Origin: Cyclobacteriaceae bacterium
GTDB lineage: Bacteria > Bacteroidota > Bacteroidia > Cytophagales > Cyclobacteriaceae
Assembly (NCBI GenBank): GCA_965228595.1
Contig: OZ245828.1
Span: 5,255,846-5,279,845 of the forward strand
DNA: 24,000 nucleotides
Direction: 5' to 3'
Below are positions 2,273 to 12,293 of this stretch, one piece after another. The translations under genes were made by a program, and so were the position numbers. Numbering within the stretch: position 1 is the first letter of the stretch; each line of letters opens with the position of its first letter. The notes under the pieces were generated by a model. It searched no databases. It was not told the DNA's origin and worked only from the letters and a program-made list of their open reading frames with translations.

Positions 2273-4001
2273 AAACACACAAATCGAAGCATTGGAAAAA
2301 CCACTTGTTTTCCATATCAAAGCAGCAGTGGAAGGTGAAGAAGTTTCCCCTGAAAAATTCTGGGACCAACTGCGGAATTACTATCGGACTGCCGAACTTC
2401 CAAAAGGGTATAAACACCCTAAGCTTGTTTCGGTATTCAGTCATCAATTGGCTGGTGAAATCAAGGATTCACATACTGAGGCAAAAGAGTCTACATCAGG
2501 AGCTCCATTACTTTTCAAAACACTCAATGACGGGGTAGCCATTTACCAGCAGGTCATCAGTGCCCGATTTCGACAAAAGTCAGCTGACCTGATGAATGCC
2601 CTGAAAGTGTTGCTCAAGGTACCGGAAAACCAAAAAACAATTGGAGAGATCTATGATTTTGCGGAAGAAGTGATTGCTTTTGAAAAGCTTTCCGGATTGA
2701 TACCGGAAACAGAAGGCAAACAATTGACTAAATCCAGGAGCCAACGTTTGGTCCGTGTGCTGGACATGTTACAGCATGGATTGAAATACCTGGAAGGAAA
2801 ACTGGCAACAGTGATGATTGCCGAAGGGATGGCCATGGAACACGAGACGTTATCACACTGTGAAATTATCACGGAGAAAGATGATGTGTTTTCCAAAGCA
2901 GATGAGACCATCAGAGAGCAGATGGACCACTTTTTAGCCATTATCAAAGCCTTTAGAATCGCGGAATTGGAAGTAGATGGAGCATATAAAGAAGATATCC
3001 ACAATGAATATTTCGATCACTTTTCCTGGTACCAACTGACTGCCGAAGAGCGAAGATTATTTCATCCCTTCATTATTGTTGTGGATCATGCATATCTGAT
3101 GGCAAACCTGGATATTTATTCCCAATTACTTGCTTCAAACTGGCCTTTTAAATTCATCGTATTAAACAACCAGGGGGTGAGTCAAACTGCTGAGCATGTT
3201 AGTTGGGAGGATGCCGCCCATCGGTACAGACAGGAGCTCTCTATGCTGACCATTGCTCATCGCAATGTTTTTACTTTTCAGTCCACCCTGCAAAGTAAGA
3301 GCACGTTGATGCAGGGCATCAATGGTTGTTTACATTCATCCGGCCCGTCCCAGGCACACATACTGCTGCCAGAAAACGGAGATAAAATAATAACTGACCG
3401 GGCAGCAGCTTTGAGCAGGTACTTTCCTAACATCAAGTACAACCCTGAAGCAGATCCAAAAGCCGGGCCACGTTTAAGTCTGGAAGGTAATGAGCAACCG
3501 ATGAAGGATTGGCCGGTATTTGAGCTGACTATCGATGAAGGAGTAGGGGATGGCACCATGGAGCTTCCTTTCATCTATGCTGATTATAAGGCATTTTTTC
3601 CATCAAAAGTCAAAGAGCTGATGATCATCCCTTCGGCGTTTTATGGTGATAAACATCTGATCCCATTAAGCGAATATCTTACCCTCAAACCGGATCAGCT
3701 TATTGGCAAAGTACCATATATTTTGCTTGCTGATGGTGAGAGTGGGCTTTACAAAGCAGCCGTACCCAATGTGTGGGTAGTCTCCTGTCAGGAACGCCTG
3801 GATTTCTGGCAATTCCTTCAGGAAATGGGCAGGGTAGAAGCACAGGATGTACAGGAAAAACCACAAAATATCACCACAGATCAAACCAACCTGATCACAG
3901 CGCTCAAACACAAACATGAGCAGGAGATCCGTCAAATCAGGGAATCCGCGGTGAAGCAGGCTGCAGAGCAGCTTTTGGGAACACTCCTCCGGGATAAATA
4001 A
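2262..4001 (+). CDS. Hypothetical 579-aa protein with a degenerate PFOR domain-VI-like segment, translationally coupled to korB
   Basis: A long ORF whose ATG at 2262 overlaps the korB stop (2270-2272) by 11 nt. By eye, residues about 268-410 align with the TPP-binding and C-terminal region of pyruvate:ferredoxin oxidoreductase, but the GDG glycines are missing. See the findings. Confidence 0.75.
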   Translation: MPSENTQIEALEKPLVFHIKAAVEGEEVSPEKFWDQLRNYYRTAELPKGYKHPKLVSVFSHQLAGEIKDSHTEAKESTSGAPLLFKTLNDGVAIYQQVISARFRQKSADLMNALKVLLKVPENQKTIGEIYDFAEEVIAFEKLSGLIPETEGKQLTKSRSQRLVRVLDMLQHGLKYLEGKLATVMIAEGMAMEHETLSHCEIITEKDDVFSKADETIREQMDHFLAIIKAFRIAELEVDGAYKEDIHNEYFDHFSWYQLTAEERRLFHPFIIVVDHAYLMANLDIYSQLLASNWPFKFIVLNNQGVSQTAEHVSWEDAAHRYRQELSMLTIAHRNVFTFQSTLQSKSTLMQGINGCLHSSGPSQAHILLPENGDKIITDRAAALSRYFPNIKYNPEADPKAGPRLSLEGNEQPMKDWPVFELTIDEGVGDGTMELPFIYADYKAFFPSKVKELMIIPSAFYGDKHLIPLSEYLTLKPDQLIGKVPYILLADGESGLYKAAVPNVWVVSCQERLDFWQFLQEMGRVEAQDVQEKPQNITTDQTNLITALKHKHEQEIRQIRESAVKQAAEQLLGTLLRDK

Positions 4002-4020: not shown

Positions 4021-4042
4021 TATGTGTGTTCGAACACACATA
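4021..4042. promoter_or_regulatory. Perfect 22-bp palindrome TATGTGTGTTC|GAACACACATA (operator-like or hairpin)
   Basis: Read directly: the two 11-nt halves are exact reverse complements. It lies 20 nt after the stop of the 579-aa ORF and about 137 nt upstream of the PAP2 ATG. Confidence 0.5.
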
Positions 4043-4056
4043 GGATAAAAACACAT

Positions 4057-4070
4057 TGTGTTCGAGCACA
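4057..4070. promoter_or_regulatory. Second, imperfect copy of the same palindrome core (TGTGTTC|GAGCACA)
   Basis: Same 14-bp core as 4025-4038, with one mismatched pair. The centres are 32 bp apart (4031.5 versus 4063.5). Confidence 0.4.
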
Positions 4071-4178: not shown

Positions 4179-4955
4179 ATGAGAATAATCATTGGGATTC
4201 TTATTTTTCTTTTTTCCTATCAGACGATCGCTCAGCGGGATAGTTCCTATTACAAGGTAAATATCCCCATTGAAGGAGCTATTACAGCTGCAGGTTTTGT
4301 AACAACCACCATGCTCTTTAAGAGGCTTTTCAGCATCGCTACCATGACAGAAGATGATGTCCTGGCCCTGGATATCAATGACATCAATAGGTTTGACAGG
4401 CCTGTAGCAAGGTTTGACCCCAATGAATATGACACCAGCCAGAAGCTTTCCGATCTGTCAATGAACCTGTCTACCGCACTTCCATTTTTCCTGTTGATCG
4501 ACAGGAAGGTAAGACAAGACTGGGGAGCATACCTGGTGCTTTACCTGGAGTCACAAATGATCAATACATCCATCTATCAGGCAGGAGCATTTAGCTTTAG
4601 AAGGCCCCGACCGCTTACGTATAATGATGGGGTGGACATGGAAGTACGAACCGGGGAGCAACGCAGCAACTCATTCTTTAGTGGGCACGTGTCCACGGCA
4701 GCAACAGCCACCTTTTTTATGGCCAAGGTATTTACAGATTATCATGACATCACCGGATGGAAACGTTTTGCACTGTATGGAGCTGCCTCGGTACCCCCAT
4801 TATTCGTAGGCTATCACCGAATGCATGCTGGTAAGCACTTCCGGACAGATGTATTGCTTGGCTTTGTGATTGGTGCGGCGAATGGGATACTCATTCCACA
4901 CCTGCATGACCGGATGCGAGGGAAGAAAAAACAGGAGCCCAGGGTGGAGTATTAG
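4179..4955 (+). CDS. PAP2-family (type 2 phosphatidic acid phosphatase / haloperoxidase superfamily) membrane phosphatase
   Basis: PAP2 motifs are present: RRPRP, SGH (FFSGH) and R-x5-H-x3-D (HRMHAGKHFRTD). I prefer the ATG at 4179 (MRIIIGILIFLFSYQTIAQ, signal-like) to the TTG at 4056 given in the ORF track. Confidence 0.85.
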   Translation: MRIIIGILIFLFSYQTIAQRDSSYYKVNIPIEGAITAAGFVTTTMLFKRLFSIATMTEDDVLALDINDINRFDRPVARFDPNEYDTSQKLSDLSMNLSTALPFFLLIDRKVRQDWGAYLVLYLESQMINTSIYQAGAFSFRRPRPLTYNDGVDMEVRTGEQRSNSFFSGHVSTAATATFFMAKVFTDYHDITGWKRFALYGAASVPPLFVGYHRMHAGKHFRTDVLLGFVIGAANGILIPHLHDRMRGKKKQEPRVEY

Positions 4956-8696: not shown

Positions 8697-8856
8697 TGGG
8701 AGTGAAGGTTGGTATATCCGCGAAATTAAAAGGATGTGGTTGAAATTAAATCGGAATCAGGCTTTAAATAATAAGCTTGTTTGTTTGTGTTATCACCATA
8801 ACCATCAATCTAAGGATTGATTATCCAATTGAGCTTGACTGGATTGATTAAAATCA

Positions 8857-8873
8857 GGCCGCTCCTACGGAGC
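8857..8873 (+). repeat. Outer REP-like hairpin, forward (GGCC GCTCC-TAC-GGAGC)
   Basis: A 5-bp GC-rich stem with a 3-nt loop. It recurs at 9912-9928 and 12231-12243, and in inverted form at 9347-9363 and 10189-10205. Confidence 0.8.
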
Positions 8874-8896
8874 TAACTACAATTCGTCATTAATTT

Positions 8897-9098
8897 CTAC
8901 AAACAGGTCGTCCCTCCGGGACTCTTTTCGCTCCATGTAAGACTTCAATAATTGACATGTTCATTAAAGTTTAATGATAACATTCAGATCAGGCAGCCCT
9001 CTCAGCATGCGGCATTTTAATTTCAGCACATGAGCGTCGCACAAGCCATGAGGAAGACAAGCAAGGGAGAAAAGATTTATGGTTACAAAGGAAGCCCA
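8897..9098 (+). repeat. Unit A: inner box CTACAAACAGGTC + hairpin GTCCC-TCC-GGGAC + ~170-bp core
   Basis: It is a head-to-tail duplicate of unit B with a 202-bp period (8899 aligns with 9101). I count only 3 substitutions between A and B. Confidence 0.85.
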
Positions 9099-9321
9099 AG
9101 ACAAACAGGTCGTCCCTACGGGACTCTTTTCGCTCCATGTAAGACTTCAATAATTGACACGTTCATTAAGGTTTAATGATAACATTCAGATCAGGCAGCC
9201 CTCTCAGCATGCGGCATTTTAATTTCAGCACATGAGCGTCGCACAAGCCATGAGGAAGACAAGCAAGGGAGAAAAGATTTATGGTTACAAAGGAAGCCCC
9301 AGCGGGGCGACCTGTTTGTAG
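9099..9321 (+). repeat. Unit B: inner box + hairpin + core + inverted inner box (GCCCC-AGC-GGGGC GACCTGTTTGTAG)
   Basis: The terminal 13-nt boxes CTACAAACAGGTC and GACCTGTTTGTAG are exact inverted repeats, and each is adjacent to a 5-bp-stem hairpin. Confidence 0.85.
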
Positions 9322-9346
9322 AAATTTACATTTGTTAGTGTGATTA

Positions 9347-9363
9347 GCCCCGTAGGGGCGGCC
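9347..9363 (-). repeat. Outer REP-like hairpin, inverted variant (GCCCC-GTA-GGGGC GGCC)
   Basis: It is the reverse complement of the outer hairpin, with one stem pair changed from T-A to C-G. Confidence 0.75.
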
Positions 9364-9441
9364 CGATGCTACATGTTGAACCTTAGCAAATGGTTCTAAT
9401 TGATTCAGATAATTTGGTTAAGTTTCAAGAAATATTGAAAG

Positions 9442-9903
9442 ATGGCAAATACCTATTCAAAAATCTACATTCAAATTGTCTTTGCAGTAAAAGGGCGTCA
9501 GAATTTAATACCGAAAGCCCATCGTGAAGAGCTACATAAATATATCTCAGGAATTGTCGACCGTAGGGATCAGAAATTATTATCCGTATTTTGTATGCCA
9601 GACCATACCCACCTGTTTGTGGGTATGAAGCCATCAGTCTCTGTATCTGATTTAACCAGGGATGTTAAGGCGGCTTCCTCCGGATTCATTTCTGATAATA
9701 ATTGGGTGAAAGGTAAATTTCAGTGGCAGGAGGGATTTGGAGCTTTTTCATATTCCAGAAGTCAGGTAGATACGGTCGCTGCTTATGTTTTGAATCAGGA
9801 AGAACATCATCGTAAGCAGACCTTTAGGGAAGAATACATTGACTTCTTGAATAAATTCAATGTTCAATTTGATGAAAAATACTTGTTTGACTGGATTGAA
9901 TAA
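9442..9903 (+). CDS. REP-associated tyrosine transposase (RAYT; IS200-like HUH/Y1 family)
   Basis: 153 aa. It has an HUH motif (PDHTHLFV), a catalytic Tyr motif (AAYVLNQEEHH) and the N-terminal IYIQIVFAVKGRQ strand typical of Y1 transposases. There is no tnpB partner, and the gene is flanked by REP-like hairpins. Confidence 0.88.
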   Translation: MANTYSKIYIQIVFAVKGRQNLIPKAHREELHKYISGIVDRRDQKLLSVFCMPDHTHLFVGMKPSVSVSDLTRDVKAASSGFISDNNWVKGKFQWQEGFGAFSYSRSQVDTVAAYVLNQEEHHRKQTFREEYIDFLNKFNVQFDEKYLFDWIE

Positions 9904-9911
9904 TAAAATCA

Positions 9912-9928
9912 GGCCGCTCCTACGGAGC
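9912..9928 (+). repeat. Outer REP-like hairpin, forward copy immediately 3' of the RAYT gene
   Basis: Identical to 8857-8873. Confidence 0.8.
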
Positions 9929-9950
9929 TAACTGCGATTCATCAATGATT

Positions 9951-10164
9951 CTACAAACAGGTCGTCCCTCCGGGACTCGTTTGGCTCCATGTAAGACTTC
10001 AATGATTGATATGTTCATGAAGGTTTAAATAAACAACATTCAGGTCTGATAGCCCTCACATCATACGGCATTTCATGAGCGTCAAACAGGCCATGAGGAA
10101 GACAAGCAAGGGAGAAAAGATTTATGGTTACAAAGGAAGCCCCAGCGGGGCGACCTGTTTGTAG
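9951..10164 (+). repeat. Unit C: inner box + hairpin + diverged core + inverted inner box
   Basis: Same architecture as unit B. The right-hand ~75 nt are identical to B. The left and middle parts carry many substitutions and a net deletion of about 9 nt. Confidence 0.85.
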
Positions 10165-10188
10165 ATAATATCAGTTAAAGGAAGAACA

Positions 10189-10205
10189 GCTCCGTAGGAG
10201 CGGCC
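10189..10205 (-). repeat. Outer REP-like hairpin, inverted (GCTCC-GTA-GGAGC GGCC)
   Basis: Exact reverse complement of 8857-8873. Confidence 0.8.
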
Positions 10206-10329
10206 TGTAGATGCTTCTCTAAATAAATTGTCTGGTGATGGCTATGCTGTTGCTAAGTATGCCCTGATCAACCCACATATACGATGTAAAAGTGGTGGTC
10301 TTTTAATTAATTAAGTGCCTTAATAGGCC

Positions 10330-12025: not shown

Positions 12026-12230
12026 TTGATTTTGTGCAATTTTTGCTTCAATATGCTGTTTTGTTTAACTAAAGTATTACTTCTTTAACTAAGGGTATAT
12101 ATTGCTATATATCAGCATGTTATGAAAGTTAATTAAAGTAGGTAGAACTGATTTGAAGCTTTCACTTAGGTTTGGGGTAGATACTATAATTTTCTATTTA
12201 ACAACGAATCAGAGAGATGTGATATCGGAC

Positions 12231-12293
12231 GCTCCTACGGAGCTAATCTTTATTCAATTCTAGATTCTACAGACAGGTCGTCCCCAATGGGAA
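12231..12293 (+). repeat. Solo REP doublet (outer hairpin + inner box/hairpin, no core)
   Basis: GCTCC-TAC-GGAGC at 12231-12243 is followed by a 23-nt spacer. Then comes CTACAGACAGGTCG plus a degenerate hairpin TCCC-CAAT-GGGA (12267-12293). The spacing matches the modules at the RAYT locus. Confidence 0.7.

Follow-up and report, generated by a model that had tools for sequence, protein, structure and literature searches.

The 24-kb window analysed here, the whole stretch of 24,000 nucleotides taken from contig OZ245828.1 of a Cyclobacteriaceae bacterium, contains an HUH/Y1 transposase gene (9442–9903, + strand, 153 aa) whose two flanks carry the same ordered set of repeats: a hairpin, a spacer, a box with a second hairpin, a core of ~170 bp, and then the mirror image. 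The left module (8855–9365) contains two cores and the right module (9910–10207) one, in otherwise the same order. A first-pass annotation of the sequence had described these ordered modules, which lie where it placed them, and had read the core as a conserved passenger of an undescribed element class. We consider it probable that the locus is a REPtron-like cluster, in which a single IS200-like HUH/Y1 gene is tightly bracketed by cognate hairpin sites of the repetitive extragenic palindrome (REP) type, and that the core is a spacer.

Reading the left module from its outer edge, the outer REP CAGGCC-GCTCC-TAC-GGAGC (8855–8873, − strand, tail pointing left) is followed by a 23-nt spacer, the inner REP with a CTAC box (CTACAAACAGGTC-GTCCC-TCC-GGGAC, 8897–8922, −), core copy 1 (8923–9098, delimited by repeat finders), a second inner REP (9099–9124, −), core copy 2 (9125–9295, 99% identical to copy 1), GCCCC-AGC-GGGGC-GACCTGTTTGTAG, a 25-nt spacer and GCCCC-GTA-GGGGC-GGCCCG. 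The three − strand hairpins of this module were located by motif match; none of the cores has a strand. The outer sequence GCTCC...GGAGC given in the annotation is correct for the left edge, but the right outer hairpin of this module reads GCCCC-GTA-GGGGC. In the right module, the outer REP (9910–9928, −) begins 7 nt after the stop codon and is followed by the inner REP with a CTAC box (9951–9976, −), core copy 3 (9977–10138, 86% identical to copies 1 and 2 and with an 11-nt deletion), an inner REP ending in GTAG (10139–10164, +) and the outer REP (10189–10207, +).

The spacers measure 23 and 22 nt on one side and 25 and 24 nt on the other. Their fixed lengths (22–23 and 24–25 nt) had been recognized, but not that the supposedly variable sequences are diverged copies between matching positions of the left and right modules (left outer-to-box spacers: TAACTACAATTCG... 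and TAACTGCGATTCA...). The tandem duplication in the left module (8899–9100 and 9101–9302; Tandem Repeats Finder score 781) has the period of 202 bp first proposed, with four substitutions between the copies instead of three. The repeats at the locus are far beyond chance: within the window, the outer 17-mer has five matches (≤3 mismatches) against 0.02 expected, and the inner 18-mer six against 0.01.

An IS200-like protein flanked by REP-like doublets

The protein matched the Pfam family Y1_Tnp (PF01797, E = 5e-23) and the NCBIfam IS200 profile (NF033573; 65.3 bits, above the cut-off of 55 bits), whereas its score against the NCBIfam profile for REP-associated tyrosine transposases (RAYTs; REP_Tyr_transpos, NF047646) was 25.2 bits, far below the cut-off of 80 bits. 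Matches among solved structures (PDB) were IS200-type TnpAs only, 4ER8 not being among them. The sequence contains an HUH motif and a single catalytic tyrosine in a matched Y1_Tnp fold, as RAYTs do; it carries H55-T-H57, W95-Q96 and Y115-VLN-Q119-EE-H122-H123, of which H55-T-H57, W95-Q96 and Y115-x3-Q119-x2-H122-H123 were invariant in 15 homologues from diverse phyla. The tyrosine motif YVLNQEEHH has the form Y---Q--HH and not the Y---NP that defines class 2 RAYTs. An above-threshold profile match together with Y---Q (Y115, Q119) is characteristic of IS200/IS605 subclass 1.1, and Y---Q--HH, WQ and a length of ~148 aa (153 aa here) of TnpAY1 subclass 1.2, an assignment that rests on motifs only and not on the published profile. 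Judged by these sequence features, the protein is IS200-like, of the Y---Q--HH subclass, and not a canonical RAYT. The RAYT label of the first-pass annotation is apt in a functional sense, but it does not describe the protein family.

A protein search returned ~8000 homologues, the best 120 of which were all ≥70% identical; the protein cluster of the window copy itself comprised one member on one contig. Proteins sharing ≥70% identity occurred among Bacteroidota, Acidobacteriota, Kryptoniota, Planctomycetota (Jettenia), Nitrospirota and the candidate phyla radiation (CPR; Magasanikbacteria) (loci L117, L024, L054, L137 and L138; proteins P0013–P0120). Such unusual conservation across phyla, with this hairpin motif at the flanks in every case, suggests that the protein is under strong constraint, is often transferred horizontally, or both.

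The first-pass annotation had distinguished two hairpin families. All nine hairpins fit a single pattern of a 5-bp GC-rich stem, a 3-nt loop and a GRCCTG tail, which can be written as the REP-like consensus G(Y)YCC-NNN-GGR(R)C-GRCCTG(TTTGTAG), with TTTGTAG confined to the inner copy and absent from the outer one. The motif usually occurs as a direct doublet with hairpins ~51 nt apart, in the order hairpin, 9 nt, GTAG, 24–25 nt, hairpin. In the left module, this geometry is seen in the inner REP GCCCC-AGC-GGGGC-GACCTGTTT-GTAG (9296–9321, +), whose GTAG lies 9 nt 3' of the stem, and the outer REP GCCCC-GTA-GGGGC-GGCCCG (9347–9365, +), 25 nt past GTAG. Across ~140 loci, 104 of 124 pairs of neighbouring hairpins in the same orientation were spaced 49–52 nt centre to centre. 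One genome per species was scanned for the 18-mer GGGRCGACCTGTYTGTAG, which matched at least 120 stretches, with matches listed from Bacteroidota, Rhodothermales, Ignavibacteria, Kryptoniota, Gemmatimonadota, Desulfobacterota, Planctomycetota (Brocadiaceae/Jettenia), Acidobacteriota and others; nearly every listed match was followed, beyond a spacer of variable sequence, by another hairpin of the outer type with unchanged orientation. A literature search with the motif strings returned unrelated primers only.

We compared 14 Y1 loci from Bacteroidota, Rhodothermales, Ignavibacteria, Kryptoniota, Acidobacteriota, Planctomycetota (Jettenia), Nitrospirota and a CPR bacterium. Homologues of the window protein were found by tblastn in seven motif loci (58–73% identity), and additional loci were taken for homologues at 71–98% identity. 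A '>' GTAG box lay 61–135 nt upstream of the start codon at every one of the 14 loci, and a '<' CTAC box 45–71 nt after the stop codon at eight, with an inverted REP hairpin near the stop in most others. In the CPR and Nitrospirota examples, the outer hairpins lie directly against the start and stop codons. The window and L121, L123, L143, L117, L057, L061, L137 and L139 have a further inverted set upstream, resulting in a head-to-head arrangement around a spacer. The gene is flanked by inverted REP hairpins, as expected of a RAYT, and the recurrent placement supports the view that these REP-like sites are cognate to the HUH/Y1 gene beside them. Each inverted pair, taken with its spacer, is arranged like a REPIN, a dimer of head-to-head REPs.

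This flanking is at odds with what is known of subclass 1.2, described by Quentin et al. (2018) as close to IS200, low in copy number, found in Bacteroidetes and Cyanobacteria, and 'REP: no' (PMC6006769). The window protein resembles the subclass in its Y---Q--HH and WQ motifs, its length of ~150 aa and its proximity to IS200 TnpA (PMC6006769), but departs from it in the HuH motif (DHTH instead of DH[IV]H) and in the REP-like doublets, which flank every locus examined although neither REPs nor terminal hairpins are reported for the subclass. Since the subclass was reported without REPs, the conserved, phased doublets are the modestly novel part of the system.

Tandem units and probable loss of the gene in a relative

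The modules had been taken to end at their outer hairpins. The repeat runs further, on the left into the last ≥17 nt of the Y1 reading frame (8835–8851 versus 9887–9903) and on the right into sequence similar to the initial ~45 nt of the gene leader. The left extension is a remnant of the 3' end of the gene (TTGACTGGATTGATTAA, 8835–8851, +), located directly left of the left module, identical to 9887–9903 at 16 of 17 positions (repeat family D7) and present as a diverged copy in the gene-less locus L128. The leader itself (9366–9441, +), whose proximal ~35 nt are kept in L122, L124 and L121, has a weak remnant after the right module (10208–10260, +) that is clearer in L122 and L128. The locus can accordingly be written as a gene 3' remnant, inverted doublet, core(s) and doublet; then leader, gene, inverted doublet, core and doublet; then a leader remnant. 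From the GTAG at 9318–9321 to that at 10161–10164, at the end of the right inner REP, the distance is 843 nt. Because the repeat passes the outer hairpins into the 3' end and 5' leader of the gene, the locus amounts to ~1.75 tandem copies of an 843-bp unit.

The unit consists of a doublet, the leader, the gene, an inverted doublet and a spacer of ~170 bp, with one doublet pointing towards the gene on each side of it. The outer unit copies have lost the gene by deletion, and one further deletion or duplication produced the 202-bp core repeat. At the 202-bp junction, the loop of an inner '>' hairpin is fused to the box of an inner '<' hairpin (AAGCCCaAG joined to ACAAACAGG), and the second inner REP (9099–9124) has a truncated box (AGACAAACAGGTC...) that marks the deletion or duplication junction; this arrangement is precisely what would remain if a deletion had taken out a gene copy lying between two cores. 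The modules are accordingly the places where adjacent units meet, and the core is the DNA enclosed there. The extra core in L122 has different junctions, with the leader fused to a degenerate inner hairpin, and a comparable reiteration of module and leader-like DNA occurs in L123 and L139. Reiteration of REP clusters together with flanking DNA has been described before, as have head-to-head REP dimers with family-conserved spacers (PMC3733652).

Close relatives differ in whether they have the gene. The Y1 protein is 98% identical in L124 and 91% identical in the syntenic L122. L128 is also syntenic with the window (amino acid identities of 87% for HrpB, 88% for CarbReg and 94% for the NHL-repeat protein), but its intergenic region contains one module with one core and no Y1 gene, with both the 3' remnant and the leader remnant retained. 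Gene loss in L128 is the parsimonious reading, because L122, which is more distant from the window (CarbReg 72%), has the gene. Either recombination of the direct-repeat modules with each other or the precise excision of a single unit could account for the loss, and the periodic structure fits both.

The same structure could be attributed to transposition, with the 843-bp unit as an active insertion sequence (IS) of the IS200/IS605 type in tandem with its own decayed copies. The 24–25-nt linker together with the outer hairpin would form its left end; its right end would be made up of the inner hairpin, 9 nt and GTAG, and the core would be its 3' non-coding part. Insertion would take place 3' of GTAG, the tetranucleotide that closes its own right end, so that new copies would settle beside existing ones and each doublet would mark the junction of a right end with a left end. 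The profile and structure matches of the protein agree with this, as do the likeness of the doublet geometry to the IS608 junction (10-nt right and 19-nt left linker; PMC3597680), the 50–52-nt arrays in L061 and L066, and L128, which resembles the window with precisely one unit removed. In L121, L122, L123 and L138, too, an outer...inner hairpin pair on the same strand lies behind the gene. However, asymmetric same-strand left- and right-end hairpins without terminal inverted repeats, as in IS200/IS605 elements, are limited to some loci, whereas inverted REP doublets bracket the gene at all 14; in most phyla only inverted REPs bracket it, with no same-strand right end downstream (L024, L027, L030 and L054). 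Dispersed elements are symmetric and tail-to-tail, unlike IS200/IS605 ends. According to published data, copies of the Y---Q--HH subclass are few and, within one genome, just 36% identical (PMC6006769), and recombination between direct repeats explains the precise loss of a unit equally well. We regard an active insertion sequence as unlikely.

The core as a probable inter-unit spacer

Between the window and L128 the core shares 81% identity with many gaps, compared with 85.8% and 84.5% for the flanking intergenic DNA and 83–87% for neighbouring coding DNA. Homologous cores were present in the close relatives L124, L122 and L128, with identities of 63–85% between genomes and 72–99% within a genome that did not follow left/right orthology, and core copy 1 of L124 is a chimera of left- and right-type sequence. 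Both the disregard of orthology and the chimera point to duplication or gene conversion, and we conclude from these alignments that the left and right cores are alike only through such recent events. At other Y1 loci the cores were unrelated (local-alignment z ≤ 3.5, against >20 inside a family) and differed widely in length, from ~27 nt in L137 through ~40 and ~66 nt in L123, ~80 nt in L138 and ~100 nt in L139 to ~175–180 nt in L143 and ~330 and ~180 nt in L121. The supposed cargo is thus no better conserved than intergenic DNA and is replaced at homologous loci by unrelated cores of 27–330 nt.

One form of the passenger idea proposed in the first-pass annotation was that the inverted hairpins and the core make up a non-autonomous element resembling a miniature inverted-repeat transposable element (MITE) or a REPIN, mobilised in trans by the Y1 enzyme. 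The geometry is suggestive: the inverted doublets with their spacer fold very stably, at −118 and −120 kcal/mol (z = −7.6 and −8.8), two inverted REPs and a spacer can form one long hairpin in pairs I1, I4, I5 and I6, as in REPINs, and conservation of the spacer is typical of REP dimers in head-to-head orientation (PMC3733652). A solo module also persists in L128. The 24-kb window contains no further copy of the core, and blastn found none in 120 REP-bearing loci. A core-specific pattern had 0 matches in metagenome contigs, and a broader 19-mer spanning the core end and the inner hairpin matched 12 metagenomic loci, of which only L128, the orthologous locus, was related; there, the 19-mer occurs once in a 240-kb contig. 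Plasmids contained no match to the core, and viral contigs 0 matches to its end. The copies in the window share sequence beyond the hairpins, which indicates segmental duplication and not transposition, and the dispersed forms in related genomes are core-less. In the data searched, the core was not found away from the Y1 locus, and we judge a mobile passenger to be improbable.

A function of the core in its own right, as a structured RNA or single-stranded DNA (ssDNA) cofactor or regulator, a small RNA, or a 29-aa peptide, appears very improbable. Its 3' half is identical in the three window copies, and a small open reading frame (ORF), MSV(A/K)QAMRKTSKGEKIYGYKGSPSGATCL, is found in copies 2 and 3. 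This 29-aa ORF is frameshifted or lacks an ATG in copies A and C of L122, other core ORFs are <33 aa, and other lineages have unrelated cores; a coding role was rejected. Folded alone, the two strands of the core scored z = +0.2 and +0.9, like shuffled sequences, and the strong folding of the modules comes wholly from the inverted hairpin doublets. No Rfam family matched the whole window at gathering thresholds, or positions 8800–10260 at E ≤ 1, and the RNAalifold consensus of eight core copies was weak (−14.8 kcal/mol) with an unfavourable, positive covariation term (+1.58). These results do not support the structured RNA or ssDNA cofactor that the first-pass annotation had also considered.

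A promoter in the core was likewise rejected. A sigma-70 scan gave four sites against 4.1 expected, which is background, and no exact Bacteroidota −7 motif occurred in it, the sole exact match near the locus lying in a spacer (9327). The leader contains TAATTTGG at 9411–9418, conserved in L122, L124 and L121; it resembles the −7 motif, and the Y1 promoter is more likely located there than in the core.

The core is unconstrained in sequence and length and is best read as an inter-unit spacer copied together with the transposase unit, not as a cargo or cofactor. The flagged conserved cargo is then ordinary: spacer DNA duplicated with the transposase unit. Two observations weigh against the REPtron-like interpretation as a whole. 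Homologous recombination, precise excision or integration by the enzyme, and simple tandem duplication predict the same periodic structure, so that sequence cannot separate them. Moreover, core lengths of 160–180 nt recur in two unrelated core families (the window type and the L121/L143 type), which could hint at a length or structural requirement.

Dispersed hairpins and relation to known systems

Outside the Y1 loci, the commonest dispersed form of the motif was a tail-to-tail four-hairpin element, [inner> outer>][<outer <inner], without a core. Single metagenome-assembled genomes (MAGs) held at least 9–16 separate motif loci each, one of them at least 14–16, and head-to-head hairpin pairs with 6–15-nt spacers occurred in Lutibacter and Bacteroidales. 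Viral contigs contained two REP matches. An example of the four-hairpin element in Cyclobacteriaceae (L006 4440–4680, ~165 nt) lies on the 5.82-Mb contig that also carries L143, at a distance of 2.65 Mb from the Y1 locus there. Because its flanks continue the inverted symmetry (GCCGTCAACTTAGCAATT... versus ...AATTCTTAGGTTGACGGC), this palindromic element is longer than its hairpins. A Desulfatirhabdiaceae MAG contained at least 14 loci with near-identical four-hairpin elements (e.g. L044 251–404, L086 6406–6560, L089 and L101), in which conserved sequence runs ≥45 nt past the inner hairpins (...cacccccaggaatgaaaatgatatcttccgaaaa...) and past the outer hairpins (...aaccggaatacacag). These elements apparently represent a larger element built on the same hairpins and recently amplified.

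Head-to-tail arrays of at least four to five REP units with 50–55-nt periods were observed in L061 (3247–3422), L066 (7750–8000), L057 (560–750) and L048 (6520–6760), the periods in L061 and L066 being 50–52 nt. The arrays share the doublet phase and have identical spacers inside an array; in L061 and L057 they lie just upstream of the Y1 gene.

The closest known counterparts are the REPtrons and bacterial interspersed mosaic elements of Escherichia coli TnpA-REP and the REPIN-RAYT systems of Pseudomonas. Common to all is a single HUH/Y1 gene flanked by inverted short GC-rich hairpins with a GTAG tag, the same hairpins being dispersed between genes as singletons, head-to-head or tail-to-tail dimers and clusters, and reiterated with flanking DNA (PMC6006769, PMC3733652). 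For the present motif, the dispersal was seen in genomes other than that of the window, which itself contributes one additional doublet in 24 kb. Besides the Y---Q--HH motif in place of Y---NP and the profile score below the RAYT cut-off, the present system differs in that GTAG lies 9 nt 3' of a 5-bp stem and not at its 5' foot, and in its direct doublet with a fixed ~51-nt phase and a motif that is conserved across phyla instead of species-specific. IS200/IS605 elements such as IS608 give the best profile and structure matches and share the order of hairpin, short 3' linker, tetranucleotide and longer linker (9 and 24–25 nt here, 10 and 19 nt in IS608). In contrast to them, inverted repeats enclose the gene here, the elements are symmetric on both strands, tnpB is absent, and cleavage at GTAG is an assumption.

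MITEs and palindrome-associated transposable elements derived from IS200/IS605 (e.g. Nezha) are short non-autonomous derivatives that keep only the end hairpins. The tail-to-tail four-hairpin elements resemble them in looking like the gene-bearing element minus the gene, but the core-bearing head-to-head modules of the window look like inter-unit junctions, and the dispersed elements that we found lack a core.

IS608 TnpA and E. coli TnpA-REP recognize hairpins on ssDNA and cleave near a tetranucleotide (PMC3597680, PMC6006769). By analogy, the REPtron-like enzyme would bind and cleave its hairpins on ssDNA near GTAG and may spread core-less doublets or tail-to-tail four-hairpin elements through genomes. 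Recombination of the direct-repeat modules would delete the gene, or a circle could re-integrate it. We hypothesize that the likeness of the doublet to the IS608 junction could explain both the fixed phase and the 50–52-nt arrays. In a more specific version, which we put forward only tentatively, the Y---Q--HH subclass would be the enzyme of a pan-phylum REP system whose ~51-nt double hairpin mimics an IS200/IS605 junction, with cleavage 3' of GTAG, insertion beside GTAG ends, and the gene as an excisable and re-integrable 843-nt cassette. If true, such cleavage and insertion would generate doublets, 50–52-nt arrays and tandem gene units alike. Provided that the association of gene and hairpins holds, the system would represent a REP/RAYT-like system outside the canonical RAYT class, apparently intermediate between IS200 and REPtrons, and would offer a simple conserved substrate for studying Y1 recognition and the spread of hairpin repeats.

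The only additional doublet in the window lies between the NHL-repeat gene and the next gene (12227–12290, −): an outer hairpin, a 23-nt spacer, CTACAGACAGGTC and a degenerate inner hairpin, with neither core nor partner. The orthologous spacer of L128, ~113 nt shorter and too diverged to align there, lacks it.

REPs are known to have a weak terminator role. At the Y1 locus, the inner hairpins run into T-rich stretches of the core on both strands, and hairpins and T-rich runs may act together as weak terminators insulating the gene.

Further repeats and genes were observed at related loci. A toxin-antitoxin-like pair (Gp49/HigB-like and HTH_3/HI1420-downstream family) adjoins the left REP module of L121 (8645–9237), whereas the syntenic L143 lacks it at the corresponding position (3582–3636). 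A second GC hairpin repeat (AAGCCCCAAAGGGGCG-TAATCA/TCATCA, often with ACACAGGGTG nearby) was found in Cyclobacteriaceae genomes and within L121/L143-type cores (L099 3920–4010; L121 9770–9800 and 10640–10665; L143 3705–3880), which suggests another repeat family nested by insertion into these cores. In one intergenic region of a Cyclobacteriaceae MAG (L099), three copies of an unrelated palindrome (GGTGGTCTGTGGGYCACAGACCAC; 3828–3860, 4040–4065 and 4205–4235) are interspersed with the REP doublet.

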